A DNA stretch of 64,000 bases, from the NCBI RefSeq assembly GCF_056712565.1, contig NZ_CM160072.1. One strand, 5' to 3'. Positions within the stretch are counted from its first letter, which is position 1, and each line of letters begins with the position of its first letter. A program made the position numbers and the translations under genes. The notes under the pieces were generated by a model. The model was not told where the DNA came from and did not search any database. It saw nothing but the letters and a program-made list of their open reading frames with translations. This document shows, in pieces, positions 24,940-46,515 of the stretch.

Positions 24940-24964
24940 CCTTAACAGCGTACTACTGTTAAGG
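24940..24964 (-). terminator. Stem-loop downstream of the island-terminal gene
   Basis: ccttaacag-cgtacta-ctgttaagg perfect 9-bp stem; no clear U-tract. Confidence 0.25.
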
Positions 24965-24980
24965 TGGGAGGACCATCTCA

Positions 24981-25544: not shown

Positions 25545-25628
25545 TATGAGGTTTCCTTTCTGTTTATAAACGAAAACGCCAGCCCTGTTCAGGCTGGCGT
25601 CAGGAGAATGGAGTCTGGTGAGTGAGAT

Positions 25629-26051
25629 TCACCGGTTCTGGTGCATAAGTTGCAGTTGGTGCAGGGTACGGATATCCTCCCTGGCCTGTTCAATACAGGG
25701 CAGCAGTGCTGCCGAATCCGTTTTATCCTCATCGTTGTCGAAAATAATTCCGGACCCGCAGTCGATATTGTCCTGCAGCCACGCAATGAGGATATCCAGC
25801 GCTGTTTCAGTGGTTAATGGCATCACGCTCTGTATCACTGTATTGTCTTCCGGCAACTGATGAGGGCTGGCATAAGTTGCCGGTGTTTCGGTAGAGTCAC
25901 GGTCATCCACCACGCGGAGTGAATCACCGTTTTCAGCGGCCTTATTAATCAGTTCAGCGAGATTAACACCATCAATGTCAACGACAATTCGCCCCATATT
26001 CAGTGCCTGTACGTTAACGCTGTCGGCTTCCGGCGTCAGGGAAAGTTTCAT
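25629..26051 (-). CDS. YeeW-like protein encoded downstream of the CbtA toxin
   Basis: 140-aa ORF overlapping the cbtA stop by 4 nt; position equivalent to yeeW in CP4-44. Confidence 0.5.
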   Translation of the reverse strand: MKLSLTPEADSVNVQALNMGRIVVDIDGVNLAELINKAAENGDSLRVVDDRDSTETPATYASPHQLPEDNTVIQSVMPLTTETALDILIAWLQDNIDCGSGIIFDNDEDKTDSAALLPCIEQAREDIRTLHQLQLMHQNR

Positions 26052-26425
26052 TGTTTCACCTCCGGGTGCTTACCCAGGATAATATTATTTACCGTTCTGT
26101 AATTGTCGCGGGTCATCAGGCCGGTCGCCCTGCGAGCCCGGAGGATATCAATACTGTTTATTAACTGAGAACGGGTACAGGCGCTGAATCCCGGCTGGTC
26201 GGTACGTACCAGTGCGTATTTTTCAACGAGAAAGTTCACCGCATCGCACAGTGAAATGCCTGCCTCAATATGCTGCTCAATCACACGTTCATCAGCGAAC
26301 GGTGTGTCATTCAGCGTAAGGCCGTAGTGCTGATCCAGCAGTCGGGTGAGCAGTGTCTGCCAGATTTCAACCGGAGACGGGCGTGAACTGGCCGCCTGCC
26401 CGGGTAATACAGGTAATGTTTTCAT
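26048..26425 (-). CDS. cbtA: CbtA-family toxin (type IV TA; cytoskeleton inhibitor)
   Basis: 125-aa ORF MKTLPVLPGQAASSRPSPVEIWQTLLTRLLDQHYGLTLNDTPFADE..., near-identical to recalled K-12 CbtA/YeeV. Confidence 0.85.
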   Translation of the reverse strand: MKTLPVLPGQAASSRPSPVEIWQTLLTRLLDQHYGLTLNDTPFADERVIEQHIEAGISLCDAVNFLVEKYALVRTDQPGFSACTRSQLINSIDILRARRATGLMTRDNYRTVNNIILGKHPEVKQ

Positions 26426-26513
26426 ACTGAAGATTTTCCTGATATGCAGAGATGAAAAATGGAAAAGTGGCGTGGTGAAAGCACCAGGCCGAGCAGAAGG
26501 TTATTCTGGAGAG

Positions 26514-26882
26514 TTACTTTTTCGTTTCGGGCGTCGGATAAACAGCCATATAAACGTAGCCACAACTGCCGAGGGTGTCGGCTTCGCAGGTCAGCCCTTT
26601 TGCATACAGCGTGACGGTATGCTGATGGCGGGGATTCAGTTCACCGCTGGTGAGCATGAGTTCCAGTTGTTTCATCAGCAGCGGAAAGGCCTGGTCCAGG
26701 TGGTACGAATCCGCGTCGCTGAACCGCCCTCTGATACCGGCGCGGTCGGCAAGGTAATGCAACCGGTTGCCTTCCTGTACCAGACGGGCACCAAAACAGG
26801 GCGTCACGGTGCAGGGCAGTCCCCACCAGGTACGGTCGTTATTGTCGTCGGGAAGCGTTGTCCCGGGGAGTGTGTCTGACAC
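26514..26882 (-). CDS. cbeA: CbeA-family antitoxin (YeeU/YfjZ family)
   Basis: 122-aa ORF MSDTLPGTTLPDDNNDRTWWGLPCTVTPCFGARLVQEGNRLHYLADRAG... Confidence 0.85.
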   Translation of the reverse strand: MSDTLPGTTLPDDNNDRTWWGLPCTVTPCFGARLVQEGNRLHYLADRAGIRGRFSDADSYHLDQAFPLLMKQLELMLTSGELNPRHQHTVTLYAKGLTCEADTLGSCGYVYMAVYPTPETKK

Positions 26883-26961
26883 GATAAAATCCTCACAGAA
26901 AATTGGTTAAGAATGGTCCGGTGGTGGCGATAATTCTGCTCTTCTGAATGCCCTTCCAGAC

Positions 26962-27183
26962 TCAGTTCAGGGTGACGCTCATCAGCCGGACATACGGACC
27001 AAAACTGTCCTTCCGGCGTTCTGCAAACACGGCCAGCACACAGGGAATATCCTGTACTTCACGGCCGGTATATGTATCCGTGCTACCGTGCCAGCGGTAT
27101 TTACCGGTACAGAACGGAAAAAGACGGGATGCAGGATGCTGACGGTGAATACGCATGGCTTCACCACGGGTGATGATTTTCAT
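26962..27183 (-). CDS. yeeT: YeeT/YkfH-like small protein (DUF987)
   Basis: 73-aa ORF in the conserved position between the radC-like and cbeA genes. Confidence 0.65.
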   Translation of the reverse strand: MKIITRGEAMRIHRQHPASRLFPFCTGKYRWHGSTDTYTGREVQDIPCVLAVFAERRKDSFGPYVRLMSVTLN

Positions 27184-27269
27184 GAGAATAGTCCTCCTGA
27201 ATGTGAAAGTAAGAAACAGCTGAGAAAGAGAAACTGAAGTGATATGAAGGTGATTGTGACGGTGACGGG

Positions 27270-27746
27270 TTAAAGCAGACCGTGTTCCGCAAAGGAGAAA
27301 ACCTGGCTGCCACCGACTATCAGATGGTCCGGCACCCGGATATCCACCAGGCCCAGTGCCTGTACCAGACGTTCCGTGATAAGGCGGTCTGCCTTGCTGG
27401 GTGTGACTTCACCGGACGGGTGATTGTGTGCCAGCACCACAGCAGCGGCATTGTGATACAGGGCGCGTTTAATCACTTCCCGGGGATGGACTTCCGTGCG
27501 GTTGATGGTGCCGGTGAAGAGGGTTTCACCGGCAATCAGCTGATTCTGGTTGTTCAGATACAGCACCCGGAACTCTTCCCGCTCCAGTCCCGCCATGTTC
27601 AGAATCAGCCATTCTCGTGCCGCACGGGTGGAGGTGAAGGCCACGCCGGGTTCATGAAGATGGCGGTCCAGGGTTTTCAGGGCCCGTTGAATGAGGCTGC
27701 GCTCACCGGGCGTCATTTCTCCGGGCAGAAAGGAAATCTGTTGCAT
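27270..27746 (-). CDS. yeeS: RadC-like JAB-domain protein (YeeS/YfjY/YkfG family)
   Basis: 158-aa ORF with JAMM motif region ...VVLAHNHPSGEVTPSKADRLITERL... Confidence 0.8.
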   Translation of the reverse strand: MQQISFLPGEMTPGERSLIQRALKTLDRHLHEPGVAFTSTRAAREWLILNMAGLEREEFRVLYLNNQNQLIAGETLFTGTINRTEVHPREVIKRALYHNAAAVVLAHNHPSGEVTPSKADRLITERLVQALGLVDIRVPDHLIVGGSQVFSFAEHGLL

Positions 27747-27760
27747 TGTTCCGGCCCCTT

Positions 27761-28240
27761 TCAGTCAATGATGCGCATAATGGCGCTGCATTCCGGATGC
27801 TGCAGGGCGTAATCCCGCAGCCGGTAATAATGGACCGTCATGGCATAACATTCCGTACGACAGGCATGATGGCTGTACGTCATCAGACAGGCGGCAATAC
27901 CGGCAGCTTCCGGACTCATTTCAGCGCGGTTACCGTTCATGGCATTGAACAGTACCCATGTTTCGTCATCATCGTCATCCGGTTCAGGTGCCATAAATGC
28001 GCCACCGTTGTTCAGGGTGTACAGATTCCAGATGCCCCCGCAGTAGTCTTCGCACAGACGGTCCATCCAGCCGAAGACACGGGGCTCCAGGGTCACCCAC
28101 TGTGGAATGAGGCCAAAATGCTGCGGCCAGAAGCTGATACGTTGTTCATCAGGGACGGGAGTAGCAACCAGTTGGGGCTGGTTATTCCCTGGTGCTGTGG
28201 CTGAAGAAAGAGCAGTTGTGTTCTGAGAAACGATTTTCAT
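27761..28240 (-). CDS. Antirestriction protein (KlcA/ArdB-like; YfjX/YkfF family)
   Basis: ORF track 183 aa; likely start at internal MKIVSQNTT...; acidic DDDDDE stretch and conserved C-terminal half. Confidence 0.65.
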   Translation of the reverse strand: MKIVSQNTTALSSATAPGNNQPQLVATPVPDEQRISFWPQHFGLIPQWVTLEPRVFGWMDRLCEDYCGGIWNLYTLNNGGAFMAPEPDDDDDETWVLFNAMNGNRAEMSPEAAGIAACLMTYSHHACRTECYAMTVHYYRLRDYALQHPECSAIMRIID

Positions 28241-28505
28241 GAGTGAAATCCTTACAATGTGTATAAATGAGAGGAAATAAAGGCCGGGGGCTGACAACAT
28301 CACGTTCATCACTGACCGTGAGACCCGGCAATATCAGGGATGAATGATATTCGGCTGAAATTCCGGACAGCCGTACGCGTAACCGTTCCGGTCACAGACG
28401 GATGGCCAGAAGATGCCATTGCCTGTACTCAGTCTGCACAGACTGAGTTCTCCGGGGCGTCGGGTGATTCTGGTGCCTGAATCACGCCTTCAGGGACAGA
28501 TTGCA

Positions 28506-29324
28506 TCAGCGCAGGCTCTCCAGTAGCGTTTCTGCCATCACCCACAATGCGCGATTGAGCTTAATGCCGGTGTCGATGCTGTGAATGGCACGGGTGTGGA
28601 TACGTTTTCCTCTGGCACTGCGACCGGAAATTCCGCCTTTTAGCATATTCTCCTGGATGGTCTGATAAGTACTCCACAGGTCCTTACCGTAATCCTCCCG
28701 GCGTCGTGGCGTCAGAATGTCGGCGGTGGTGACGGGCTGATGTTCGTCACCATAACGGTAAGTCAGTGCCGCCTGTGCCAGCGCCTGGCGTGTCGGTGGC
28801 GGCAGGACCAGCGACTGCATGGCATCACGCTTCTCCTCTATCCGGTCAAACACGCCCACCACCTCGTAAGCCCCTTCAATAACTTTCTCCACCACATTTC
28901 CCCGGTGTGGAACACGCAATTCTCCCAGAGACTGACCGCAGACCAGTCCATTGGTACAAATGGCACGAAAATATCCGGGTAACATCTGGTAGCTGGATGA
29001 ACCGTCATGGGAGTTGAGCAGAATAATTTCAGGCACATGCTGACCGGTTATCTGTCCGGCCCGCCGCAGACGCAGCATATGTTTGGTATATTCCCGGCGG
29101 CTCTGGTCGCGCACACGGGTCTGGCAGGCGAAGAACGGCTGAAAGCCTTCCCGCTGCAGATTTTCCAGGACGGTGATGGTGGGAATGTACGCATACCGTT
29201 CACTGCGGGAGGTGTGCCGGTCTTCTCCAAAAATACTCGGGACGTGGTACATCAGTTCTTCGCGTGTCAGTGGGCGCTCCCGACGGATCTGATTTACATG
29301 ACCAAAACGACTGGCTAATTGCAT
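28506..29324 (-). CDS. DUF932-family protein (YafZ/YfjQ-like)
   Basis: 272-aa ORF in the conserved CP4-type gene order. Confidence 0.55.
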   Translation of the reverse strand: MQLASRFGHVNQIRRERPLTREELMYHVPSIFGEDRHTSRSERYAYIPTITVLENLQREGFQPFFACQTRVRDQSRREYTKHMLRLRRAGQITGQHVPEIILLNSHDGSSSYQMLPGYFRAICTNGLVCGQSLGELRVPHRGNVVEKVIEGAYEVVGVFDRIEEKRDAMQSLVLPPPTRQALAQAALTYRYGDEHQPVTTADILTPRRREDYGKDLWSTYQTIQENMLKGGISGRSARGKRIHTRAIHSIDTGIKLNRALWVMAETLLESLR

Positions 29325-29413
29325 ACTTTGCTCCTTATGAATGAATTAGCGGTATAAACGAAAAGGCCGCGTCTCCCGGAGAAGACGCGGCCTGATGGAT
29401 GAAATGAAGACGT

Positions 29414-29647
29414 TTATTGCCTGAGAATTCCCTCACTGGCGAGATACGAATTTAGCTGTTTTCCGGCATCAGGTTCAAAATTCCAGCACCGCCAGCGTAG
29501 CTGCCCTTCGGCATTGCGGATAACCAGCCGGAAATGCGTTCCCTGGTCATCTTCAATAAGCACATTGCGGTAAGCTGTTGTGATGACAACCGCCTGTTCG
29601 CGTGAGAAAGGGCCTTCGGGCAATAAAACAGGGCGACAGTCCAACAT
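29414..29647 (-). CDS. Small hypothetical protein of the CP4-like module
   Basis: 77-aa ORF in operon orientation; family not recognised. Confidence 0.35.
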
Positions 29648-29652
29648 ACCGG

Positions 29653-30330
29653 CTATTTTCCGATAAATTCAACGCTGGCGCCGGTGGCATTACCGTCAGC
29701 ACCAACCGTGACGGTCACTTTGTCGTACGCACGGTCTTCAGGATTGAATACTTCAAACTCAACCTTATTGCCTTTTACTTCGTAAGAGCCAAAATCAGCG
29801 GTTTCTGTTGTTTCCTCGTCGTATTTCCGGGCGTATGCCTGTCGGGCAGCCTGCAGTACGGAGTCTTTATTAATAGTGGTCGTCTGTTTCGGGGAAAAAA
29901 CGGCAAGTGATGTGACAAATTTCGGACAGACCTTCAGCATATCACCGCGGGTGAATTCCATTCGTACACCAAATGCCTGTAAAACGGACACATCACGCTC
30001 TGCTATGGAGTGAACGGCTTTTTTGACCATTTCCGACGCCTGTTCGGCTTCCACCTCAACAGCCCTGAATCCCGTCTGCTGATTACACATTTGTGATGTG
30101 GGGATCAGGTTACCGTTAATACTGATACGGCTGCCCAGGAGCGTCTGTACGCCATTCGGGCATCCCTGCATCAGGCCGGTAATACCAATCGTGCCATTTT
30201 TCAGCATTACCAGCGCCTGACCATCTTCCGTCATGGTCTGGCACCAGCCGTTTTTGACAGCCCAGTTACCGGCGGAGGCGGAGAAGGATGCAACAGTGAA
30301 AAGCAGGGGAAAAAGAGTTCTGGTATTCAT
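29653..30330 (-). CDS. Putative secreted protein or lipoprotein (YfjS/YafY-like position)
   Basis: ORF track 261 aa; likely start at [22 protein letters not shown], a signal-peptide-like N-terminus. Confidence 0.4.
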
Positions 30331-30480
30331 GACTGACCTCTGAAATGAACGTACGGTGTTATTGATAATGATGGAAGGTATGCAGTGACTGTTCAGGAAA
30401 TGACGTAATAGCCATATATTTAGTTTTCTGTTCAACATATTGTCTCCATACCTGTCGGGACGGCTTTGGCAGGCCGGCGA

Positions 30481-31161
30481 TCACAGGTTAAAGGTGTTGA
30501 TAAGTTTATGGATGAAAGAGAAATGTGGCAGGGCGGAGATAAAACGCTCTTCAGCGACCAGATTGTGGATGTGGCCTCTCCGTTCAAACCGTTCTGATGT
30601 CAGGCTGACTGATTTGATATCTGCCAGGGGAAAGACCTGCAGTTTTCCCTTCTGTAACGCGATCAGATACCAGCTTCCGCTGTAATAAATGAGCCGGCAG
30701 GGCTCCAGTGACGTATACCATCGCTCAGTCATCAGCGAGATGTGGATACACTGTTTTATTGCCAGGATGAGTTGCGAGAAACACTCGGGGAACGTTGCAG
30801 TGATATCCGGCGCCGGTAGCCAGATAAGGCAGGGAGAGGGCTCCTGGTTGTCGGTAAGACAGGTTATCAGTCGTCCGTTCCGGAGCGGAAGTATCCGTGC
30901 GATCCCGGTATTCTGTATAAAAGAAAGCATTTCAGGGATCGCACACGGGCTGCTCTGTCGTCTGAGGCTGTACCTGCCATTTCTGTACTCTAAATCCAGG
31001 TGAACCAGACGCTGATGAAAATCGCGCTGTAAAGTACGTTCTGTAACGCCAAATTCATCTGACAGTGTCTTTAGTGACAGAGATTCTCCGGCCATCAGTC
31101 GGCTGATAATGAGTGATAAGCGAACCGCCAGACGATCATGCCGGGAACGATCATCAGACAT
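30481..31161 (-). CDS. WYL-domain transcriptional regulator (YfjR-like)
   Basis: 226-aa ORF, N-terminal HTH (LKTLSDEFGVTERTLQRDF) and C-terminal WYL-like region. Confidence 0.65.
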   Translation of the reverse strand: MSDDRSRHDRLAVRLSLIISRLMAGESLSLKTLSDEFGVTERTLQRDFHQRLVHLDLEYRNGRYSLRRQSSPCAIPEMLSFIQNTGIARILPLRNGRLITCLTDNQEPSPCLIWLPAPDITATFPECFSQLILAIKQCIHISLMTERWYTSLEPCRLIYYSGSWYLIALQKGKLQVFPLADIKSVSLTSERFERRGHIHNLVAEERFISALPHFSFIHKLINTFNL

Positions 31162-31363
31162 AGATGTGTACTCCGTAAGAAAACATCTTTTATTTCATGA
31201 TGTTATTATGCCTCATGGTGTTGAAAGGATGTGTCGTATCTGAATAATCAGGAATAAAATGCAGCAGAAAAAATATTCCTTTAATTATCTGATTTTTAAT
31301 GATGATTTCATAAAAAGAAGAATACTCGTTAATCCAGCGACACATCCTGTCGGCGTGAGTGTG

Positions 31364-32248
31364 TCAGAACAGACGATCCCACAGTGTTTCCAGCAGGCGG
31401 ATAATGCGGTCCCGGGCTTTACGCAGAAGCTGTAACATCCAGACCGGAAAAGTGAACCGGGCAACGGCGTCGTCAAAACTTTTCCCGATGGCGTCACCAA
31501 AAGTCTGTTGTGCGTGTTTCTGGGCCTGTTCAGAGCGGTTTTCCCCCCGGATATGTGAATAAACCGCACTGGTTGCCTGCGGTGGCAGGGCGTGGATCAT
31601 CAGCGACACAAACGCCGGAAGATTCCAGCCGACAGGCGCAGCAACGGGGAGTACCGGAAATGATGACGGGAACAGGGTTGCCACCCTGGCTGTAACAGTT
31701 GCCAGTGAGAGTTCCTGGTGACGGGATGGGCATTTTTCTGTGGCATTCCATTCTTCAGCAGGAAACACGCGATCGGCATGGCTGAGAACAAACAGAAAAC
31801 GCGAGGGATCTGCACCTTCATTCAGTAAAAACTGATGCATGGCAATATCGGCAGCATACGCACGTTCATCAGCCCGCAGGATCCAGATAATCAGATCCAG
31901 TTCCGGCAGTAACTGACGGTAAATCTCCCGGTATTCCTGATCATGCTGCGGTGTCTCACCAATGCCGGGCAGATCGACCAGCGTCATTCTGCGTTCACCA
32001 ATCTGCAGGGTGAGGCGATGAGCCTGGCGGGTGCAGCCGTTCAGGGGATGCGTGGCGCAGATACGGGACTGAAAAATGGCATTACACAGACTGCTTTTGC
32101 CGGTGCCGGATTTACCCATAATGCCAATCACGGGCTCGTAATGAATAACACCGTGGAGATGTTCAAGGATTTTCTGGCGAATTTCTTCAGGAAGAAACGT
32201 CAGATATGATTTCACTTGCGCGGAGAGGGAAGAATTGCTGAATGGCAT
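31364..32248 (-). CDS. YeeP/YfjP/YkfA-family GTPase
   Basis: 294-aa ORF with P-loop GIMGKSGTGKSSLCNAIF and DLPG switch motif. Confidence 0.8.
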   Translation of the reverse strand: MPFSNSSLSAQVKSYLTFLPEEIRQKILEHLHGVIHYEPVIGIMGKSGTGKSSLCNAIFQSRICATHPLNGCTRQAHRLTLQIGERRMTLVDLPGIGETPQHDQEYREIYRQLLPELDLIIWILRADERAYAADIAMHQFLLNEGADPSRFLFVLSHADRVFPAEEWNATEKCPSRHQELSLATVTARVATLFPSSFPVLPVAAPVGWNLPAFVSLMIHALPPQATSAVYSHIRGENRSEQAQKHAQQTFGDAIGKSFDDAVARFTFPVWMLQLLRKARDRIIRLLETLWDRLF

Positions 32249-32348
32249 ACCGGTATCCTGTTGATTTCACTGAACCGGATCACACTAATCCGGTTTATCA
32301 TTCAGGTAATATGGGTGTGAAAATTTTTCCATTGACGGGAAGAAGAGT

Positions 32349-33572
32349 ATGGCTAAAAACAAAGGTATCTGTCGGAATAAAAAATGCAGTAATCCTGTTT
32401 CAGAATTTGATGAGGCAAATGCCTTAAGGTTATGCGATGATCATTATAAGCTATGGAAGCGAAATAAAGAGAATCGTCGGGTCAGGAATATTTGTCGTAT
32501 AATTAGTAGATATGACAAAAGTCTGGACTGGGAGATATTTTATAGAGTAAGAGATGCTGCAAAAAATAAAACGGGAAAGAGAATTATTGAGGACGCAAAA
32601 ATATTACACCAATGGCGTGCTTCAAAGCAAGTAAGAAAAAGTTTTCACAAGGGTGTGCTTCGGTCACGGGAATGGCTTAATACACAGGAGTTACTGAGCA
32701 GAAAACATATATCTGTTACAGGTGAACTATTTAAATTTTACATAAAAGATATTATCAGATTATATTGCTATAAGTTTCTCTACAGCAGAGAATATCTTAA
32801 TGAAAACGCATACAAAAAACGATATCAGAGAGATATTCACCCCAGAAAAGTTAATGTTCCGATACTGCAACTTGAAGTTGCATGGATAAATAATAATTGC
32901 CGCTCAAGTGATTCAAGCACTGATATTATTATCCTTCCGAGGATGATAAGAAGAATGGTTGTATTTAATTATACGAAGATAAATAAACAATTAGAGAAAG
33001 TGTTGGGGGGGATAGCACGAAAACAAACCTCAGAAAGGAATAAAGGCGGTCTCTATACCAGAATAAAAAAAGAAAGTGACTTTCTTTCTATGGATAGATT
33101 TATGGTGGAAATAGAAAATATCATAAGACCTGAAAGGTTTCCTACATCAATTTATCCAGTCTTTTCACATTCATTTATTGAACGAGAGCTTCCGCTACTG
33201 AATCTTGCCCGATCACAGTATAAAAGAGCAATAAGTAAAAGAGTGGCGAATTCAATTTTTTATACTTTGCAAAAAACTAACGTGGCATTATGGCTATATC
33301 TTGAAATGTTTGCTCTGGTGGCATTCATTAAACTGTATACAGGAAAAGGTTTTGAATTCATAAAGAACATGTGTGTATTTATCGATTATGAGAAAGGGAT
33401 AATAAAATCCACACATGAAGAACTGCTGGGTGAAATTAAACGTAACATTCAAGTGAATTTGAAGGTGAATCCTGATAATTTTCCAGAGTTAATAGATATA
33501 TACAATTCATGCTTTAGTGAAAATATATTGTCATATGATATTCAGGATGGTAATTTTAAATGGCGCTCATGA
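32349..33572 (+). CDS. Hypothetical 407-aa basic protein with an N-terminal Cys4-type (zinc-ribbon-like) motif; AT-rich foreign gene, family not recognised
   Basis: Uninterrupted 1224-nt ORF in visibly AT-rich DNA, divergent from the GTPase gene; N-terminus CRNKKCSNPVSEF...LCDDHYKLW; Lys/Arg-rich. Confidence 0.6.
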   Translation: MAKNKGICRNKKCSNPVSEFDEANALRLCDDHYKLWKRNKENRRVRNICRIISRYDKSLDWEIFYRVRDAAKNKTGKRIIEDAKILHQWRASKQVRKSFHKGVLRSREWLNTQELLSRKHISVTGELFKFYIKDIIRLYCYKFLYSREYLNENAYKKRYQRDIHPRKVNVPILQLEVAWINNNCRSSDSSTDIIILPRMIRRMVVFNYTKINKQLEKVLGGIARKQTSERNKGGLYTRIKKESDFLSMDRFMVEIENIIRPERFPTSIYPVFSHSFIERELPLLNLARSQYKRAISKRVANSIFYTLQKTNVALWLYLEMFALVAFIKLYTGKGFEFIKNMCVFIDYEKGIIKSTHEELLGEIKRNIQVNLKVNPDNFPELIDIYNSCFSENILSYDIQDGNFKWRS

Positions 33573-35024
33573 TGTGAAAATATTAATTTCACATTACATA
33601 TTAATTATCCACAAAAAACATATAATTAATTTCAATGAGTTACATATAAAAACGTTGATGATTATCCAGCTTAGTATGGTTATGCAATGTGATGCTTAAC
33701 GCTTACAGATAATAACACATTCATATGAGCTATATATCATAATATTCAATAATCATGATATGCTAATCTGATTATGGATAAAAATTACTGAATGACGCCA
33801 TATTATGATTGGCAGTGTTTCCTGTATACGATGACTTATCTCTCCCGCATCATATGGGGGTACGTTTCTTAGGAAAAGTGACGGGGTTACAGAAGCCAAT
33901 TACGATAGTTTGTTGTAGAGTTATCACGAGTTTTTGTTGTTCTGAAGACGGAATCAGAAAAATAATTCCAGAGTAAACATGTCTGTTTTTTGACCAGTAA
34001 AGATCCATGCTGGCCGTGAAAAACTGAAATCAACACTCAGTCTGCATGGATGTCTGAAGATATTGAGAATGTCGGGAATGGTACTATATACGTATTATAC
34101 AGACATATCTTCACTAAGTGTTATACACGCATTTTCATAAACAATTCTACAAGTGTTTTCATTAAGCATTGCTGTACACATTGTTTGATCTGATACACAT
34201 CCAGTTTAGTAAATCTTTACGTTAGCTAAAATCAGTTTAAAGCTGCTACAAAACAATTTTTCTTGTTTAAGTAATCAGGATGATATTCTATTTTTCTGAA
34301 GTTACGTTTAACCTTTTCTTAGTTTTTGTGTTTTTAGTCGTTAACCTGAGACAAGTGTCTTTATGTAAAAACGCAAATCCGGCTGAGATAACCTGGCGTG
34401 ATTTACTGTGTGCTTACGATGATTTTGTTAAATGGTTTTATGGATGATTTTGTAACGATGAGATTGATGAGATGATTAACTGGCCCTGGTGTTTTTTCTC
34501 AGCGCAAGACTCTTTTCAGGAAAAGCGTGATGATTGGTTCTGGTGTTTTGATTCAGATGAGGTTTACGTTATCGATGGTTAACCGTTTTTATGGAGCGTA
34601 GTTAAAAGTAACGTTTTCAGTATAAGAAAATCGATTCTGATGTTGGTGGTTTTTGTTCTTGGGGCGGGGGTGTCTGTAAACAGGTTTTAATCGCGCTGTT
34701 CGGCTCTGTGATTGAGTTGTGTGGTTAAGCTGTAGGTGTGGTGTTGCTGTTGATTTACAGCGCCAGAAAGCGTTCTGATTGCGTTTCTGACGTTTTGTTT
34801 GCGCGTTCTGTTGATCCGTTTCCCTTCAGGCTTTGTAGTTTTTAAAAAACATTTATGCCGTTGTTGTGTGTTTTACTCTGCGTGTAGGTTTATTTTTTCT
34901 TCGTGGGGGATTCATTCTGTTTTAATCAGGAGCCATTGGCGTTGCTCAATGGCGGGATGCCGTAAAGTTTTACCGCAGTGATTAATGATGTGAAGTCAAT
35001 CCAAATCAACGGAGATCTCTCATC

Positions 35025-35756
35025 ATGAATCAACCAATACACAATGCTTACTGGTTATCCCGTTTTGAAAGTATTCTCAACAGTGCCCTGGCGCAACACC
35101 GTGCCGTCTCGTTAATCCGGGTGGATTTACGTTTCCCTGAGTATATGCCTGCCACCATCATGGATACCGATTTAGATTCAGCGGTGATTTCTCGTTTTTT
35201 TGCATCCCTGAAAGCAAAAATTCAGGCTTACCAGCGACATAAACGACGTGCCAACAAGCGTGTGCGTGCAACCACTCTGCGTTATTTCTGGTGTCGGGAG
35301 TTTGGCAAGGAAAAAGGCAGGAAACATTATCACGTGATATTACTGCTCAACAAAGATACCTGGTGCTCGCCAGGGGATTTCACCGTTCCTTCTTCGCTGG
35401 CGACGCTGATCCAACTGGCATGGTGCAGTGCTCTGCATCTCGAGCCCTGGCAGGGTAATGGACTGGTTCATTTTTCCAGGCGGACGCCTTTCCGTAAACC
35501 GACATCATCTGATGCTCGCCCTTCTTCCGATGATACGCCTTTGTCGGGTGGATGTTCTGAAACCAGGAAGGCTTCAGACAAAAAGTCTGGTGGATCCGCT
35601 GTGCTCTGGGTCAAGCGTGGTGATGTGGAAGCGATGCAGAAAGCCCGGAACAGAGCCAGTTATCTCGTGAAATATGAGACGAAGCAGCATGACGGTTCCG
35701 GGCAACGTAATTATGGTTGCAGTCGTGGGGTAGGGCGTCTACTGGATGGCAGGTGA
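35025..35756 (+). CDS. YagK/YfjJ-family protein (inovirus Gp2-like, HUH-type motif HYHVILLL)
   Basis: 243-aa ORF with RVDLRFPEY and HYHVILLL motifs; assignment from recalled family signature and island context. Confidence 0.45.
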   Translation: MNQPIHNAYWLSRFESILNSALAQHRAVSLIRVDLRFPEYMPATIMDTDLDSAVISRFFASLKAKIQAYQRHKRRANKRVRATTLRYFWCREFGKEKGRKHYHVILLLNKDTWCSPGDFTVPSSLATLIQLAWCSALHLEPWQGNGLVHFSRRTPFRKPTSSDARPSSDDTPLSGGCSETRKASDKKSGGSAVLWVKRGDVEAMQKARNRASYLVKYETKQHDGSGQRNYGCSRGVGRLLDGR

Positions 35757-36102
35757 GCCCTGTAAAACGGCATCCGGTACCAGAGTGTATGTCACGGTAA
35801 GGGCGTCAGCCAACGCCCTTAGATCGTTTTCTGCTAATAGCCCTGAAGTCATGAAACGGTATTTTTATCTGCTTCCGCTCCTGGAAACACTCCGTCGGTA
35901 AAAACTTACCGGGATGATTAATGATGTGAACCGAAGTCAACGGAGATCATTCCCCCTGAACCTGCATCCAGTGTTCTTTCCCTTATCTTCCCGTTCTGCT
36001 TCGGTTCTTCACTTATTCCATCAACTCCATCCGCAAACCATAACACGTCAGCTTATTCACGGGCAGGACGCATTGTGGGCTGCGCATAACGGAGCATATC
36101 TT

Positions 36103-36678
36103 ATGAATGCTATCCCTTATTTCGACTATAGCCTGGCCCCCTTCTGGCCATCTTATCAGAACAAAGTCGTCGGCGTCCTTGAGCGTGCGCTGCGTGAGCA
36201 GTCCGGCTCACGGATACGGCGGATCCTGCTTCGTCTGCCGTGTGAATATGACAATACCTTCAACAGCAGAACGACCTGGTTTGGTATGGATTTTATCGAA
36301 ACCGTCAGTGCGCTGATGAATGCAACCCCCGGACGTGATCTCTGCTGGCTCCTGACCCGTCATCCTGAAAAACCGGAATACCACGTGGTGCTGTGCGTCA
36401 GACAGGAGTATTTCGATGGCCCTGAATTGGACCGGTTGATACTGGATGCCTGGAGTAACGTACTGGGCTTCGCGTCACCGGGTGAAGCAAAGCAGTATCA
36501 GAAGCAGATCACCCGGGATGTGGTGCTGGACAGTCGTTCACCGGACTGTGAAAACATCCTCAAAGAGTTGATATGGGCGTTCAGTGATTTCGCCCGCGAT
36601 CGTCGTGGTGTGTGCGATCCGGAAGCCCGTTGCCTCGCCGGTAATCCCGGCTATCCCGGATCTGCAGGACCGTTCTGA
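36103..36678 (+). CDS. Second YagK/YfjJ-like paralog with degenerate HUH motif (EYHVVLCV)
   Basis: ORF track starts at 35914 but the first 63 codons are the conserved upstream motif and low-complexity sequence; Met at 36103 aligns with the paralog-1 N-terminus (RILLRLPCEY vs RVDLRFPEY). Confidence 0.4.
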   Translation: MNAIPYFDYSLAPFWPSYQNKVVGVLERALREQSGSRIRRILLRLPCEYDNTFNSRTTWFGMDFIETVSALMNATPGRDLCWLLTRHPEKPEYHVVLCVRQEYFDGPELDRLILDAWSNVLGFASPGEAKQYQKQITRDVVLDSRSPDCENILKELIWAFSDFARDRRGVCDPEARCLAGNPGYPGSAGPF

Positions 36679-36806
36679 AAGCTCGGTTCAGCATCTTTCC
36701 CTGCATTCGCACAAACTTCATAAATCTCACAAAGGACATTCTGACCATGTTGACCACAACAAGCCACGACAGCGTGTTACTGCGTGCCGACGATCCCCTG
36801 ATCGAC

Positions 36807-36980
36807 ATGAACTACATCACCAGTTTCACCGGTATGACCGATAAATGGTTTTACAAGCTGATCAGTGAAGGTCATTTCCCTAAACCCATCAAACTGGGGC
36901 GCAGCAGCCGCTGGTACAAAAGTGAAGTGGAGCAGTGGATGCAGCAGCGAATTGAGGAATCACGAGGAGCAGCAGCATGA
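36807..36980 (+). CDS. alpA: AlpA-family phage transcriptional regulator (excisionase-like HTH)
   Basis: TDKWFYKLISEGHFPKPIKLGRSSRWYKSEVEQW matches the AlpA signature; ORF track start 36747, internal Met at 36807 preferred. Confidence 0.7.
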   Translation: MNYITSFTGMTDKWFYKLISEGHFPKPIKLGRSSRWYKSEVEQWMQQRIEESRGAAA

Positions 36981-37098
36981 AACGTGTTGCAATACCAGCG
37001 CCGGCATTGCGGAAATCAGCCCTGTCCCCGATGCTGGCGACACTCCCGCTCATCTTTCTGCTGACTCCTCTGGTCTGCCAACTGTTTGTCATCATTTC

Positions 37099-37266
37099 CT
37101 GACTGATTCGTCATTCCCTTCGTCCCGCCAGTCACTGGTGTTTGTATCGTACCGTCCGGTGTTGATGTGCGTTTTCCGTGTGTCTGCACCGGCTTAACAA
37201 AATTCAACAGGGTTTGAAAAGGAACATTTCGTGCAAATAACCGAAGCCTTAATTTCAGAGCCGGGA
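37099..37266. repeat. Copy 1 of a ~150-170 bp repeat (inverted relative to copy 2 at 44502-44651) with a conserved 7-1-7 palindrome
   Basis: Manual alignment to the reverse complement of 44502-44651: blocks ccggctctgaaa, gcttcggttatttgca, tccttttcaaacc, cgccagtNactggcg, gaatgacga shared; roughly 75 percent identity. Confidence 0.6.
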
Positions 37267-37279
37267 GACATCCGGCGTT

Positions 37280-37636
37280 TTGTTCAGCAGGCGCTGGAGT
37301 TCTTTAATCTGCTTCATGGCAGCAGCAAGTTCAGAGGCAGGAACGACCTGTTCTCCTGCGGCCACAGCAGTAAGACTTCCCTCCTGGTATTGCTTGCGCC
37401 AGAGAAATAACTGGCTGGCTGCCACACCGTGTTGCCGGGCAACAAGGGAGACCGTCATTCCCGGTTCAAAGCTCTGCTGAACAATAGCGATCTTTTCCTG
37501 TGTAGTACGCCGTCTGCGTTTCTCCGGTCCTAAGACATCAATCATCTGTTCTCCAATGACTGGTCTAAAAACTAGTATTAAGACTATCACTTAAATAAGT
37601 GATATTGGTTGTCTGGAGATTCTGGGGGCTAGTCTA
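37280..37636 (-). mobile_element. insC: IS2 remnant (left inverted repeat plus 5' part of insC); rest of the element missing
   Basis: Terminal ggttgtctggagattctgggggctagtcta matches the IS2 IRL; minus-strand [56 protein letters not shown]... equals IS2 InsC until homology ends near 37280. Confidence 0.75.
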
Positions 37637-38793
37637 GTTTTAAAGCGCCCCCTGCCGTATCAGAACTGGGGAATGCTACAGGGTTTGACCTGTTCCTCGA
37701 GGATCGTAGCGGAGCTAGCCATGAAAAAATGATCCAGGCCCGAAATCAGCTTCTTGCTGAAGCGGCGAAAAGTCCAGCGTTAAACATGGTTCGTCCTAAC
37801 GGCATGAACGATGAGCCTCAGTTCCAGATTCTGATTGATGACGAGAAAGTTCAGGCGTTTAAACTGAGCATGAGCGACGTCGACAACATAATGTCAGCAG
37901 CCTGGGGTTCGATGTATGTAAATGATTTTAACGATCGTGGACGGGTGAAAAAAGTCTATATTCAGGGCGAACCCGGCTCACGTATATCACCGCAGGATTT
38001 TGATAAATGGTATGTCCGTAACAGTGATGGCGACATGGTTTCCTTTGCCTCTTTTGCAACAGGCAAATGGATTTATGGCTCACCAAAACTGGAGCAATAT
38101 AATGGTATCTCTGCTGTCGAAATCCTGGGGGAACCGGCACCAGGATACAGTTCCGGGGATGCAATGAAAGCAATTGAGGATATTGCGGCAAGACTTCCCG
38201 AAGGTTTCCATATTTCCTGGACAGGTTTGTCTTTTGAGGAACGACTTTCAGGTTCTCAGGCTCCTGCACTATATGCACTTTCACTGTTGATCGTCTTTCT
38301 GTGTCTGGCTGCACTGTATGAAAGCTGGAGCATTCCTTTCTCGGTCATGCTGGTTGTTCCGCTTGGTGTCCTGGGGGCTGTCTGTGCTACTTTGTTGCGC
38401 GGCCTTGGTAACGATGTCTTTTTCCAGGTCGGTTTATTAACAACAATAGGGCTGTCTGCGAAAAATGCCATACTTATCGTGGAGTTTGCTCGTGAATTGC
38501 ATGAGAAAGAAGGACTAAGCATTAAAGAGGCTGCTGTTGAAGCGGCGAGAGTGAGGTTAAGACCGATAATTATGACTTCGCTGGCATTTGTAATGGGGGT
38601 TATCCCACTGGCTGTCTCGACTGGAGCAAGTTCCGGAAGTAAACATGCCATCGGTACTGGTGTGGTTGGAGGGATGATCACTGCTACGATACTGGCAATC
38701 TTTTATATTCCTCTCTTCTATATGTTAATTGCCGGGTTCTTCAGCCGCAGAAATAAGAAATCATCGGATAAGACTGAAGCTGAGCAATCATAA
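37637..38793 (+). pseudogene. RND multidrug efflux pump (AcrB/AcrF-like), C-terminal ~350 residues only; 5' part removed at the IS2 junction
   Basis: [28 protein letters not shown]...[25 protein letters not shown]... aligns with AcrB residues ~690-1049; no N-terminal two thirds. Confidence 0.8.
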
Positions 38794-38892
38794 GCATGAG
38801 TAAATATTCAGGTGCAGTAAACAACATACTGCGCCTGAGTAAATGGCTGTTGGGTTGGTACTAAATGCCCCAGAGATATTTCCTGAAATAAG

Positions 38893-39493
38893 ATGTCAAT
38901 GGAGATTTCAACAGTGGTGCGGCACACAAAATTTGCAGCGGAAGAAACCCGCAAACAAATCCTGGATGTGGCAGAGTTCTGCTTTTGTGAGACGGGCTTT
39001 TCGAAGACGACACTGGAGATGATTGCGGCGCGCGCAGGTTGTACTCGGGGGGCCATATACTGGTATTTCAACGAAAAAAAAGATCTTCTGCGACAAGTCA
39101 TCGAGCGGGTACCACTATCATTATTTGATGAGCTTACAGCCATCAAAAATGGGAGAGTTTTTGAACCGGTTAAAGCGATGTATCGTTGCTTATCACGTAG
39201 CCTGATTAAATTACAATATAATGTACACTTACGGAATGTAATTTATATTGTGTTTTTTTTGTGAAGAATGTCCGGATGATATAAGAATAAATTTCTTACA
39301 AAAAATGGTGGATGTCAATAATTTTGTGAAATTACTATGTTATATTTTCGAAAAAGGTAAGTTATATAGAGAAATATGTTTGGAAATTCGTAGTGAGACT
39401 CTGGCGTTCCTGCTTTTTTCTTTGTTTACGGGGGGGGGCGAAGTTGCATTCTGCAACCTGATAATAAATCCCTTTTCAGAGAGGGTTGCATAG
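38893..39493 (+). pseudogene. TetR-family regulator (AcrR/EnvR-like), apparently frameshifted
   Basis: N-terminal TetR HTH (TTLEMIAARAGCTRGAIYWYFNEKKDLL) in the 38893-39264 ORF; remainder continues in another frame (39248-39493); T8 run at 39253-39260. Confidence 0.55.
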
Positions 39494-39535
39494 TACTGGA
39501 GTTGACCCAATCAACCTTCACAGGCATCGATAAAA

Positions 39536-39881
39536 ATGAACGCTACTATAAAAAACAGCTCTGATATCAATGAGTTTGCTAAATGGATTGATGAAAATCT
39601 TGAGGTAGAACTCTCAATAAATATTGAGGCAAAAAAAGCTGGATATTCAAAATGGTATTTACAGAGATTGTTTAAACATATCATTGGTATTTCTATTGGT
39701 AGGTATATTAATAAATGCAGCAGAAGAACTACGTTCTACTACTGAATCGGTCACGACTATCACTTTTAAATATCAGTTTGATTTTCAGCAGACATTTACA
39801 AGGGCATTTACTCGCCGCTTTGGTATAGCTCCTATTGCATACCGAAAACTCGCTAAGGAAGAAGTGAGATGGAATAGTTAG
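39536..39881 (+). pseudogene. MarA/SoxS-like small AraC-family regulator, split across two frames
   Basis: INEFAKWIDENLEVELSINIEAKKAGYSKWYLQRLFKHIIG in one frame, FDFQQTFTRAFTRRFGIAPIAYRK in the next; together they resemble MarA. Confidence 0.5.
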
Positions 39882-40237
39882 TTATGTAAGCGTTATTTAC
39901 TTAAGCGTGGATATATAAGAATGATATTATCAATATGTTGCTCATGAGTTTTTAATAGCATATAGGCTTGTTAACATAGCCCAGCAATATACTTTGCAGT
40001 GGGAGCAGGTATGCATACAGAACAGTGGGCGAGGACGAGCGTCCCTTTTCGAACAAGGTAGCAAAAGAGGAAGAAGAAAGACAAATACAACTGGGCCTGA
40101 AAGGGTAGTGTTTAAGCCCCCTTTCAGGGGGCCGTGTCAAAGCCGCCCGCTATGCAGATGGTTTTTTACTTTATCTGTTAAGCAAAAAAATGCCGCGATA
40201 AAGAAATTGTTACCGCGGCAGCGTCATAGCAATTTAC

Positions 40238-44651: not shown

Positions 44652-44713
44652 CTGTCAGAAAGCCCCACATGAACGATCACCACCTACATAGGAGGTGTTT
44701 TAAAATTGATCGA

Positions 44714-46515
44714 GTAGGAGGCGGGATCACTCCCGCCGTCCTCTCACACCACCGTACATGCGGCTCCGCATACGGCGGTTCATGTTAACACTGGAACTGC
44801 CTCTGCTGTTCCAGCAGTGATATCAGACCCTGCCTGCTGAACCACGCATTCTTTATCGCCTGATTCATATGGCTTGACTCTGAGTTCCACCATGGCCCGT
44901 GGTTGTTGTACGCTGAGATCATCGCCCTGTCCTTACTCAGTCCTGCTCTTTGCAGGTTCTTTGCCCGGGTTAGCGGTCTCTTCCACTGCCGCTACAACAA
45001 GCAACGCAGTTTCCGTTTGATCCAGCCATCCAGCTCCTCCAGCACTCCTCTGACCTCCGTCAGCCTGAAGTAGCTTATCCATCCACACAGCACTGGTGTC
45101 AGAGCATTGATTGTCGCTTTCACTGATTTGCTCCGGTTTCCCGTCGTCAGACTGTGGACTTTCTCCTTCAGCCTGTTCACGCTCGTCAGGGCTATCTTCA
45201 GCTTCGCCTGTTTGTGCCATGTCACACTGTACCCGAGGAACTTCCGATCCCACGGGCGCGCCACCGCGCTCTTCTTCTCATTCACCTTCAGTTTGTTCTC
45301 CACGAACGCCCTGATGTTCTTCAGCAGATGGTCGCCCGCTTTCCGGCTGCTTACGTAGATGTTGCAGTCGTCTGCGTAGCGGCAGAAGCTGTGTCCACGA
45401 CGCTCCAGTTCTTTATCCAGTTCATCCAGCAGGATGTTCGACAGTAACGGCGACAGTGGGCCGCCCTGCAGCATGCCCGCCTGCCGTTTCTCCCTTTGCC
45501 CGTCTTTAACCATTTCCGCTTTCAGGTAGCGGCGTATCAGTCACAGCACCCGCCTGTCCTTTATCGTTCTGGCCAGACGCGTCATCAGGAGTCTGTGATC
45601 CACCCGGTCGAAGAACTTCTCCAGATCCATATCCACCACCCACCGTTTGCCACCCCGTATGTAACGCTGTGCCTGTTGCACCGCCTGCTGGATAAGCCTG
45701 TCCACCACCGTCGGGATGCCTGAGGTTCTCACGCCGCCATCCGGCTTCGGGATATCCATCCGGCGTATTGTCCGCGGCTGGTAGTTTCCGTCAATCAATG
45801 CCTGCCTGACGCTGCGCCAGTTCTTCTTCAGCCACGGTTTCAACTCCGCCACGCTGAGGTTATCCACCCCCGCCGTGCCTTTGTTTTCCACCACGCGCTG
45901 ATAAGCCAGCATCAGGTTTTCTCTCGTTATCACCGCTTCCATCGTCAGCGGCACTTCCGCTTTCGTTTGCCCACCCGCCGCCGTGCTGATTTCAGCGCCA
46001 TCATGCAGCCCTGACGGATACTGTCCGTCTCCTCTGCCGCTGGTCGCAGTGGCCTGCGCTTGTGCTTCATTAATCATCATCGGGTTCGGATGTCCTAATC
46101 ACAGTTAATCATGTTCGGCCCTTCATGCTGCCGGTTTTGCAGCACTACTACGGCGTCGGCTGACTTCTGCCGCCCCATCCCGGCGCCTCACGGCGCCGGT
46201 AGCACACTGGCAGGGCGACAGATCTCCCGGGGTAATTCACGCGACTTTCCTGCTTATGCCTGTCGGCTTTACGTCACAGCGTTCCGTGTGAGTATCGGGC
46301 TTTGGTGATTAGTGCCACCTTACCCTGCTGCGCCGCCTTAACCGCTTCCTGTTCGTCAGGCCAGCATTTTGCATCCAGCTTCCTTCAGATTTCACCTCGC
46401 GATGAACACCCTTGCCTTCCGCTAACACTTCCCCTCACCGGGTGTGTGGAGGACTTTCACCTCTTAGTCGTTCTTCTGCCACCACAGTTGAAGAACAGCG
46501 CCAGTCACGGCGCAC
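44714..46515 (-). mobile_element. Group II intron (bacterial class C-like: inserted just downstream of an intrinsic terminator)
   Basis: Minus-strand 5' end GTGCG at 46511-46515, six nt after the terminator U-tract; domain V-like hairpin (GAACCGCCGTATGCGGAGCCGCATGTACGG) and domain VI-like hairpin near 44715-44780; RT ORF inside; 3' boundary approximate. Confidence 0.7.
44992..45942 (-). pseudogene. Intron-encoded reverse transcriptase/maturase interrupted by in-frame stop codons
   Basis: RT motifs (GVDNLSV, QGGPLSPLLSNILLDELD, FCRYADDCNIYV) and X-domain (CGWISYFRL); in-frame TGA at 45541-45543 and TAG at 44992-44994 after which the frame still reads RQWKRPLTRAKNLQ. Confidence 0.7.

Follow-up and report, generated by a model that had tools for sequence, protein, structure and literature searches.

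Among the multidrug-efflux systems described so far, those closest to the locus studied here are the HAE1-type tripartite RND systems MexAB-OprM of Pseudomonas aeruginosa and AcrAB-TolC of E. coli, together with acrEF-envR, a further E. coli RND operon which resembles AcrAB and has a TetR-family local repressor. AcrR is a TetR-family repressor and MexR is of the MarR type. On the side of activation, marRAB and ramR-ramA provide the nearest likenesses, each pairing a repressor with a small activator of the MarA/SoxS/Rob/RamA family that switches on efflux genes; the repressor in marRAB is a member of the MarR family. Pseudogenisation and deletion mediated by insertion sequences (IS) are an established general phenomenon in bacterial accessory regions. 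With a probability of about 0.9, positions 37286-40049 of a 64-kb stretch of E. coli DNA (hereafter the window) are what is left, without function, of an accessory RND multidrug-efflux module that had been acquired horizontally. Its features are collected in Table 1.

Table 1. Features of the remnant, with positions in the window
Feature	Position	Strand	Basis
IS2 relic (left inverted repeat and most of insC/orfA)	37286..37636	-	Ungapped 95% identity to K-12 IS2A nt 1-351
Junction bases, origin ambiguous	37637..37644	.	Three-way alignment; BLAST match to the intact locus begins at 37645
MexB/AcrB-type RND permease gene, 3' remnant	37645..38793	+	Translation, Pfam, identity to intact homologue
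Inverted repeat, 15-nt, conserved; possible RNA hairpin or operator	38805..38841	+	Lies between RND stop and tetR2
tetR2 pseudogene (TetR/AcrR family)	38893..39567	+	Pfam TetR_N; repair of the indels restores the full protein
T8 tract, +1 frameshift in tetR2	39253..39260	+	Alignments; T7 in intact orthologues
G9 tract, second tetR2 lesion	39430..39438	+	Alignments; length differs among strains
MarA/RamA/Rob/SoxS-type activator pseudogene	39536..39881	+	Pfam HTH_AraC and HTH_18 matches divided over two ORFs
Site of 14-bp deletion, frameshift in MarA-like gene	39706..39707	+	Alignment to intact E. coli and C. koseri loci
SLC13/DASS permease gene, 5' stub of 13 codons	40011..40049	+	Alignment to intact locus

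The intact counterpart of the module consists of a divergent tetR1, genes for a periplasmic adaptor and an RND permease, tetR2, a marA-like gene and an SLC13 gene, in this order. E. coli PRO_A-1374-6M-A_ESBL carries such a module (RND gene 3135 bp, tetR2 666 bp, helix-turn-helix (HTH) regulator gene 360 bp), which shares 92% nucleotide identity with window positions 37645-40049. As the remnant haplotype is about 8% diverged from this intact copy, the latter represents a sister and not the direct ancestor. Citrobacter koseri has its genes arranged in this way as well; the arrangement is also kept in Brenneria, without the AraC-type gene, and in Enterobacter bugandensis, where the activator's counterpart is a Rob-like protein of 299 aa that carries a GyrI-like domain and shares 51% identity in its DNA-binding part, and where an outer-membrane factor gene, absent from the E. 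coli and C. koseri versions, is present. The adaptor is encoded in all intact loci examined (E. coli, C. koseri, Enterobacter and Brenneria), and the E. coli and Enterobacter RND proteins are 84% identical. Relatives were located through a protein database and contig look-ups; a scan of genome contigs with a TetR2 peptide pattern gave 47 pattern matches, none of which was confirmed.

The intact permease matches the HAE1 model TIGR00915 over its full length (1679 bits, cut-off 940). Among solved structures, MexB (1587 bits) is its best relative, followed by AcrB (1400 bits), the adaptor is best matched by the MexA and AcrA models, and the divergent TetR-family gene upstream of the pump recalls the AcrR system. 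Nevertheless, the intact proteins differ from AcrB, AcrD, MexA and AcrA in scoring under the equivalog cut-offs; the permease reaches 1512 on AcrB (cut-off 2150) and 1441 on AcrD (cut-off 1854), and is not an AcrB/AcrF/AcrD equivalog. The module differs from AcrAB and MexAB further in being an accessory island element, intact in only four of the 5426 complete E. coli genomes on which all population counts given here are based. The preliminary description had suggested comparison with intact acrEF-envR-like loci. An intact orthologous locus was indeed found and aligned, but the acrEF-envR-like character does not stand, given that this island-borne pump is nearer to MexB than to AcrB (62% identity to K-12 AcrB). 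In gene order, too, the module departs from acrEF-envR, having its regulators downstream of the pump and an AraC-type gene in addition, as it does in location, the remnant lying in an island beside cadC and the grp locus. Orthology with acrEF-envR was rejected at the level of the regulator as well, where TetR2 scored 61.6 bits on the acrEF/envCD-regulator model (cut-off 274) and higher on AcrR.

The likeness to marRAB and ramR-ramA resides in the activator. The intact 119-aa protein matches RamA, Rob, SoxS and MarA over both HTH motifs (HTH_18 1.7e-21; these four are also its best structure matches, with E=1e-29 to 1e-24), its gene adjoins efflux genes, and the gene is co-oriented with and overlaps tetR2 by 23 bp, as marA follows marR. 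Unlike in marRAB, the repressor here belongs to the TetR family. RobA and RamA are the best NCBIfam models, yet the scores (RobA 135.7, RamA 122.9, SoxS 120.4, MarA 92) lie under the equivalog cut-offs of 380, 180, 174 and 250, respectively; the protein is a distinct member of the MarA/SoxS/Rob/RamA subfamily. By analogy with the acrR-acrAB, marRA and ramRA pairs, TetR1 would repress the pump genes in the intact module and TetR2 would repress the tetR2-marA-like transcript, while the MarA-like protein would activate the efflux genes once an inducer releases TetR2.

In the window, the module begins abruptly at an IS2 end, in agreement with the preliminary description. The match to IS2A, 1331 bases long in K-12, begins exactly at nt 1, at window position 37636, and runs for 351 bp that contain the left inverted repeat and belong to orfA (insC); the full element of 1.3 kb, which has two inverted repeats and orfAB, is lacking, there is no second IS2 match in the 64-kb window, and RefSeq annotates the relic as a partial transposase. 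Whilst the abutment of IS2 on the pump gene is real, truncation by a simple insertion is not, since an IS2 reduced to a 351-bp relic means that at least one further deletion took away the upstream genes. The RND frame is open from 37639 to the stop codon at 38791-38793 without an internal stop. Its approximately 383 codons correspond to codons ~663-1044 of 1044, plus the stop; the remnant was correctly recognised as C-terminal only, but the earlier figure of about 350 residues had been counted from the first ATG. The fragment covers profile positions 656-1020 of the 1021 in Pfam ACR_tran (PF00873; E=7e-133) and is 95% identical in amino acids to residues 663-1044 of the intact 1044-aa E. coli homologue. 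A full-length RND protein of ~1040 aa, with both pseudo-repeat halves, 12 TM segments and two periplasmic loops, is not encoded, and the window RND is a gene fragment, not a functional member of the family. Searches of the window by tblastn and blastn for the RND N-terminus, the adaptor, tetR1 and their flanking DNA returned the known fragment only, so that no intact upstream RND sequence exists at the IS2 boundary or elsewhere in the window; without an adaptor (MFP) homologue in the window, the parts of a functional tripartite efflux system are not present.

Both regulator genes downstream are broken. The 123 N-terminal codons of tetR2 are in frame and encode an N-terminal HTH (TetR_N, PF00440, on residues 23-69 of the 123-aa ORF, E=2e-14), after which the T8 tract leads to a stop at 39262-39264. 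The frame change in the T run had been noticed before, whereas the second lesion had been overlooked: the middle 60 codons lie in another frame, and the frame shifts again at the G9 tract, which arose from ancestral GGGGGTGGTG by the loss of one T (1 nt) plus a T>G change. With the two indels repaired, tetR2 encodes 224 aa that align collinearly with the 221-223 aa of the intact orthologues. The window allele encodes no contiguous TetR of ~200 aa with the C-terminal ligand-binding/dimerisation domain in frame; such a protein is encoded by the intact locus and by the alleles of NCTC86 and AF3. The MarA-like gene is divided across frames, as previously proposed, with HTH1 in 39536-39745 and HTH2 in 39624-39881, and two HTH motifs do not occur together in one polypeptide of ~110-130 aa. 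A homopolymer slip was considered as the cause of this split and ruled out, for comparison with the intact orthologues reveals a 14-bp deletion, its position ambiguous by about 2 nt, and putting the 14 bp back restores a 119-aa ORF. Neither a pump nor a complete regulator can be made from the window remnant, and the remnant is presumably not expressed.

On the right, a fourth truncated gene, absent from the preliminary description, marks the end of the remnant. The ATG at which the 472-aa SLC13 gene of the intact locus begins is homologous to the start of the stub; homology to the intact locus stops at 40049/40050, where grpS-flanking sequence begins, and beyond it lies the grp propanediol microcompartment locus. 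A scan for a pheU attachment site found no tRNA gene in the window. The remnant is not mentioned in the literature returned by a full-text search or in the text of the GrpP/GrpQ paper (PMC11724981).

The remnant is present in 528 of the 5426 genomes, nearly always joined to grp. The SLC13/grp junction was detected in 535 genomes and the grp locus in 538, which makes the linkage tight (535/538 grp-positive genomes carry the junction). The 14-bp deletion junction occurs in 517 genomes, and this deletion, the IS2 junction and the SLC13/grp junction are common to essentially all carriers. The TetR lesions are later and lineage-specific, and tetR2 looks intact in most other carriers: 321 of them fall into a 95-99% identity band, an allele group with tetR2 annotated as full-length that NCTC86 and AF3 represent, and in which tetR2 may conceivably keep a residual role. 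The NCTC86 allele has two nonsense codons, one each in the RND stub and the MarA-like gene. The T8 and A7 segments are exact in 114 and 127 genomes, respectively, and the G9 segment in 74, others carrying 68-, 70-, 71- and 66-base variants; some of these differences in G-run length between assemblies may be errors of assembly and not biology. A7 has become A6 in NCTC86, in AF3 and in an ST1193 strain, and this slip of -1 together with the deletion of 14 restores an open 114-aa MarA-like ORF with HTH2 intact. As A6 is found on both T7 and T8 backgrounds, it has either recurred or recombined. The same pump has been truncated independently by an IS3-family element in four further E. coli genomes, a lineage which keeps its regulators and SLC13 intact.

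Substitutions among five remnant alleles comprise 3 synonymous, 12 nonsynonymous and 2 nonsense changes (17 in total). Two functional copies, by comparison, differ by changes of which ~50% overall are nonsynonymous, with dN/dS of 0.07-0.11 in the RND segment. In a binomial test, the remnant substitutions departed from the functional pattern (p=0.006) and not from neutrality (p=0.78), on the basis of the five alleles and 17 changes; the pattern among remnant alleles fits relaxed selection. The earlier proposal of relaxed selection following IS2 insertion is borne out in its first half. Its timing holds for the TetR lesions only, which alone are demonstrably younger than the IS2 truncation: T7 and T8 alleles have the IS2 junction in common.

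We propose the following history, in which the order of the early steps is our inference. IS2 entered the RND gene near codon 662, and a deletion or recombination then removed tetR1, the adaptor gene and the first two-thirds (5') of the RND gene along with IS2 nt 352-1331, leaving the IS2 stub joined to a CP4/P4-like prophage remnant. A 14-bp deletion put the MarA-like gene out of frame, and on the right side the module was severed at codon 13 of SLC13, where it now meets the grp microcompartment locus. Later, in the window's sub-lineage only, tetR2 acquired the T7 to T8 change and the loss of a base where the G9 run formed. The traces of all but this last step are found in essentially all remnant-bearing E. 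coli, while those of the last step and the lesions of other alleles are polymorphic. The IS2 event, the 14-bp deletion and the grp junction are all fixed among carriers and so do not reveal which of them came first. The remnant DNA persists through its physical linkage to the grp locus. The likeness to IS-mediated decay in general is close, as a truncated gene borders directly on an IS end, a later deletion cut the IS in its turn, and neighbouring genes gained frameshifts and nonsense codons with a neutral substitution pattern; what stands out against the general case is the tight grp linkage and the second, independent IS truncation of the pump.

The preliminary description had allowed that the frame changes might be homopolymer errors of sequencing or assembly in regulators that are really intact. 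Two of the lesions do lie in homopolymer runs (T8 and G9), and the length of the G run varies between near-identical assemblies, as error-prone homopolymer calling can yield. However, many complete genomes that were sequenced independently, S88 and the type strain ATCC 11775 among them, match a 3001-bp stretch at 100% identity, and the recurrence of the exact T8 segment in independent genomes excludes sequencing error. The MarA-like lesion is a 14-bp deletion, the G9 lesion includes a substitution, and T8 alone gives the stop even if the G run were miscalled; there is next to no chance that the regulators are intact, and the remnant is a case of ordinary gene decay in which both regulators were broken by real mutations. 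It is also very unlikely, though somewhat less so, that the regulators are alive in another way, the tracts (T7/T8, G8/G9, A6/A7) acting as slipped-strand switches or the pieces (the 123-aa TetR N-domain, the intact tetR2 of other alleles, the 114-aa MarA-like ORF) controlling other genes as orphan regulators, for example acrAB-tolC or the neighbouring grp locus. The full-length tetR2 of the NCTC86 and AF3 alleles, the HTH2-bearing ORF that A6 alleles restore, the occurrence of A6 on two backgrounds and the polymorphic tract lengths can all be read in this way. Against this stand the 0 synonymous and 6 nonsynonymous changes in tetR2 among remnant alleles, in which purifying selection is not apparent, the nonsense codon in one allele's MarA-like gene, and the 114-aa ORF itself, in which 25 out-of-frame residues replace the HTH1 recognition helix. 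Moreover, a full TetR in the window allele would need correction of two frameshifts, and the cognate pump and tetR1 are gone. That the intact tetR2 of other strains and the 114-aa ORF are retained as orphan regulators together, with the T, G and A tracts as slipped-strand switches, is a slighter prospect still; their targets might then lie among core efflux genes or in the neighbouring grp microcompartment locus.

Whether IS2 set off the decay of the module is a separate matter. The module or its regulators could already have been non-functional or dispensable, for instance after grp had replaced the SLC13 side or after the 14-bp deletion, with the IS2 insertion and the ensuing deletion as later steps of decay. 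This order of events is compatible with the presence of all three early lesions in essentially all carriers, and the independent truncation of the pump by a different IS, along with the rarity of the intact form, suggests that the pump is dispensable in E. coli generally. The IS3-truncated lineage argues the other way, as its intact regulators and SLC13 indicate that truncation of the pump can precede other damage, and so does the age of the TetR lesions relative to the IS2 junction. On balance, we consider it doubtful that IS2 came late, although this is by a good measure the most plausible of the alternatives, and we retain IS2 insertion as the opening step of the proposed history.

The mechanistic importance of the locus is small, since this is textbook IS-associated gene decay. 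It matters for annotation, as RefSeq lists the TetR and AraC fragments of the window allele as ordinary protein-coding genes when they are actually pieces of pseudogenes. For screens of efflux and resistance genes, it means that ~10% of complete E. coli genomes carry a dead stump, while few have an intact MexAB-like module complete with TetR and MarA-like regulators. The remnant is also a fixed scar that marks the grp island, and its polymorphic lesions are handy neutral markers for the history of that island.

An Rfam scan found nothing in 37280-40049, a group II intron elsewhere in the window being the sole match. The inverted repeat between the RND stop and tetR2 is nonetheless found at the equivalent site in the window, the intact E. 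coli locus and C. koseri; its arms differ among the three loci but remain 87-100% complementary, probably with G-U wobble pairing.

The DNA between the IS2 relic and the propanediol microcompartment gene cluster (grp) is the scar of an accessory efflux module of the MexAB/AcrAB type, whose regulators were of the TetR and MarA-like kinds. The pseudogene cluster is real, was rightly recognised and is of an ordinary sort; bounded by the IS2 relic and the grp junction, it decays neutrally while hitch-hiking with grp. The preliminary description placed the truncation of the RND pump at the left end of IS2 and saw frame changes in the MarA-like gene and, at a T8 run, in the TetR-family gene downstream of the pump (tetR2); all of these were borne out by the features collected in the table. 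The alignment with K-12 IS2A begins at nucleotide 1, and therefore the left end of IS2 lies at 37636 and the element is a mere 351-bp relic; no other part of IS2 was found within the window. In tetR2 the TetR_N domain is present, the stop directly follows T8 and the remainder reads on in a different frame. The lesions were mapped by three-way and nine-way alignments with intact orthologous loci, among them L003, the complete module of strain PRO_A-1374-6M-A_ESBL. Mending both tetR2 indels yields a 224-aa TetR protein, and putting back the 14 bp yields a 119-aa MarA-like protein. The adaptor gene, the divergent TetR gene (tetR1) and the RND N-terminal sequence, whose discovery upstream would have contradicted a truncated pump, are found nowhere else within the 64-kb window. 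Both regulator genes have a high AT content, at 34-40% G+C compared with 47% in the pump. In RefSeq the pieces of the transposase and the RND pump are already marked partial, but the fragments of TetR and AraC appear there as ordinary genes. Full-text literature searches found no earlier description of the remnant, and the recent GrpP/GrpQ paper on the adjoining locus is silent on efflux, TetR, AraC and pseudogenes (PMC11724981).

Coordinates of the remnant and neighbouring features in the window
Feature	Position (strand)	Observation
melA; yjdF	5768-7123; 7120-7770 (-)	directly adjacent in matching S88 annotation
CP4/P4-like prophage remnant	24409-37285	between cadC and IS2 relic
IS2 relic	37636 to 37286 (-)	K-12 IS2A nt 1-351; 95% identity, ungapped
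RND remnant	open from 37639, stop 38791-38793	Pfam ACR_tran positions 656-1020 of 1021
Segment aligned with L003	37645-40049	92% identity
Inverted repeat	38805-38841 (+)	12-15 nt, just past RND stop; L003 9009-9048, L004 8914-8947
tetR2	from 38893	stop 39262-39264
tetR2 lesion	39253-39260	T7 to T8
tetR2 lesion	39430-39438	GGGGGTGGTG to G9: one base lost and T>G
MarA-like gene, two frames	39536-39745; 39624-39881	first; second helix-turn-helix
A7 tract, MarA-like gene	39631-39637	compared with loci L002, L010, L012
MarA-like gene lesion	39706/39707	14-bp deletion
SLC13/DASS permease 5' stub	40011-40049 (+)	ATG 40011
Breakpoint	40049/40050	homology to intact locus stops abruptly, thirteen codons into SLC13 gene; exact efflux remnant/grp boundary
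Group II intron	44709-46406 (-)	between grpP and grpO; reverse-transcriptase ORFs about 44992-45513 and 45541-46080
Fragments past grpA	60943-63515	frameshifted ECs1377-family gene, truncated POTRA-domain gene, truncated VasL-domain gene (S88 annotation)

Homopolymer sequencing errors, offered in the preliminary description as another cause of the frame changes, are excluded. Many independent complete genomes carry the 3-kb stretch at 100% identity, the exact T8 segment recurs in 114 genomes, and the lesion of the MarA-like gene is a 14-bp deletion. Assembly error might have distorted, in some records, the exact length of the G-run alone; this leaves the conclusion unaffected, because T8 already gives a stop.

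Among 5426 complete E. coli genomes, 538 carry grp. The remnant is present in full (IS2 relic to grpS flank) in 528, the junction of the 14-bp deletion in 517 and that between the SLC13 stub and grp in 535 (535 of the 538 grp-positive genomes), and the remnant is therefore a near-constant neighbour of grp. These three junction-type lesions (IS2, 14-bp deletion, SLC13/grp) are common to carriers. When the regulator segment was used as query in a sensitive DNA search, 538 E. coli genomes matched, in three identity bands: the window allele group comprises 208 at >=99%, the group of the NCTC86 and AF3 alleles comprises 321 at 95-99% (mostly 98.8% among the matches listed), and nine, including L003, fall at 90-95%. 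Only four genomes hold the intact module, and in four others a different IS3-family element has truncated it independently: tetR1, the adaptor gene and the first ~60 codons of the RND gene are gone, and tetR2, the MarA-like gene and SLC13 are intact. In E. coli strain 10 (NZ_CP048330.1; locus L013, 6733-10955) this element is complete and represents a second, independent inactivation of the pump. NZ_CP173464.1, a circular record of 64,877 bp that bears a plasmid label, is made up of the chromosomal island itself and contains the whole grp locus and the efflux remnant together with the IS2 relic, psuK-psuG-nupC and CP4-like genes; it may represent the island excised as a circle, or an artefact of assembly.

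The complete module of L003 comprises the divergent tetR1, a periplasmic adaptor gene, an RND permease gene (3135 bp), tetR2 (666 bp), a helix-turn-helix gene of 360 bp that shares 23 bp with tetR2, the SLC13/DASS permease gene and a two-component system. The intact permease matches general RND permease models and reaches none of the AcrB, AcrD and OqxB equivalog cut-offs; among solved structures it scores highest with MexB (1587 bits), above AcrB (about 1400 bits; 62% identity to K-12 AcrB), and the adaptor scores best with MexA, followed by AcrA. The models nearest to tetR2 are AcrR and MtrR, although it scores far under their cut-offs, and the 119-aa protein has matches to RamA, Rob, SoxS and MarA that cover both helix-turn-helix motifs. 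Citrobacter koseri shares the architecture, with a tetR2 80% identical, as does Brenneria without the AraC-type gene. In Enterobacter bugandensis the product of this gene is instead a Rob-like protein of 299 aa with a GyrI-like domain, and an outer-membrane factor gene comes next; permease identity between E. coli and Enterobacter is 84%, and the MarA-like protein shares 51% identity with the Rob-like N-domain. By analogy with acrR-acrAB, marRA and ramRA, we infer that the intact module would be a pump under local repression, together with a repressor-activator pair. The position of the inverted repeat is kept in E. coli and C. koseri, and its arms vary among three loci while remaining 87-100% complementary; it could form an inter-cistronic RNA hairpin or serve as a TetR operator.

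The tetR2 lesions are polymorphic and the IS2 junction is common to carriers, therefore the lesions of the window's tetR2 postdate the IS2 truncation. IS2 breaks off at nucleotide 351, next to a phage-gene fragment; its insertion was therefore followed by at least one deletion, which removed RND codons 1-662, the adaptor gene and tetR1 along with the rest of IS2. A psuK-psuG-nupC-sugar-kinase block lies left of the module in the intact-type and NCTC86-type islands (92-94% identity), which fits in-place decay within two diverged versions of one island. The block is missing from the S88-type allele and stands between two Gp2-hyp-AlpA units in the NCTC86-type island, which suggests its loss from the window's island by deletion between these repeated units. 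The exact G9 segment occurs in 74 genomes, with 68-, 70-, 71- and 66-base variants elsewhere, and the exact A7 of the MarA-like gene in 127, most others (roughly 390) having A6. The NCTC86 allele has an intact tetR2, A6 and nonsense codons in the RND stub (CAG>TAG) and the MarA-like gene (TGG>TGA), and the allele of an ST1193 strain has an extra A with T8, a G8 run and A6. A6 is seen on both T7 and T8 tetR2 backgrounds and has therefore recurred or spread by recombination.

A comparison of functional copies (intact E. coli vs C. koseri) gives dN/dS values of 0.07 in the RND segment, 0.33 in tetR2 and 0.55 in the MarA-like gene. The 17 coding substitutions among five remnant alleles (3 synonymous, 12 nonsynonymous, 2 nonsense) depart from the functional pattern (binomial p=0.006) and fit the neutral expectation of about 77% nonsynonymous changes (p=0.78). 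Small as this sample is, it agrees with the indels and points to the relaxed selection proposed in the preliminary description. A residual or phase-variable regulatory role of the remnant would draw on the A6 alleles, in which the -14 deletion and the -1 slip together give -15 and reopen a 114-aa ORF. However, the 25 codons between these lesions are out of frame and replace the recognition helix of the first helix-turn-helix, and the tetR2 alleles differ exclusively by nonsynonymous changes, making such a role very improbable.

The window is collinear with the E. coli S88 chromosome (4,596,726-4,660,725), with 6 mismatches. In the RefSeq annotation, adiC to cadCBA are followed by an integrase fragment and the prophage remnant, which contains a cbtA/yeeU toxin-antitoxin pair, an antirestriction gene, YfjJ/Gp2-like genes and AlpA; the efflux remnant, the glycyl-radical 1,2-propanediol microcompartment locus (grpS to grpA, minus strand) and more gene fragments complete the order. 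ARAGORN found no tRNA genes in the window. No melB is annotated between melA and yjdF in the matching S88 annotation, unlike in the K-12 order, melA-melB-yjdF. The VasL domain belongs to type VI secretion. Given the fragments beyond grpA, decay spans the whole island and is wider than the efflux remnant. The intron within grp matches the Rfam models group-II-D1D4-3 (139.7 bits) and D1D4-1 and a domain V/VI model, and the same insertion is found in the NCTC86-type allele. Its reverse-transcriptase region is annotated in RefSeq as two short ORFs, and thus the maturase appears broken.
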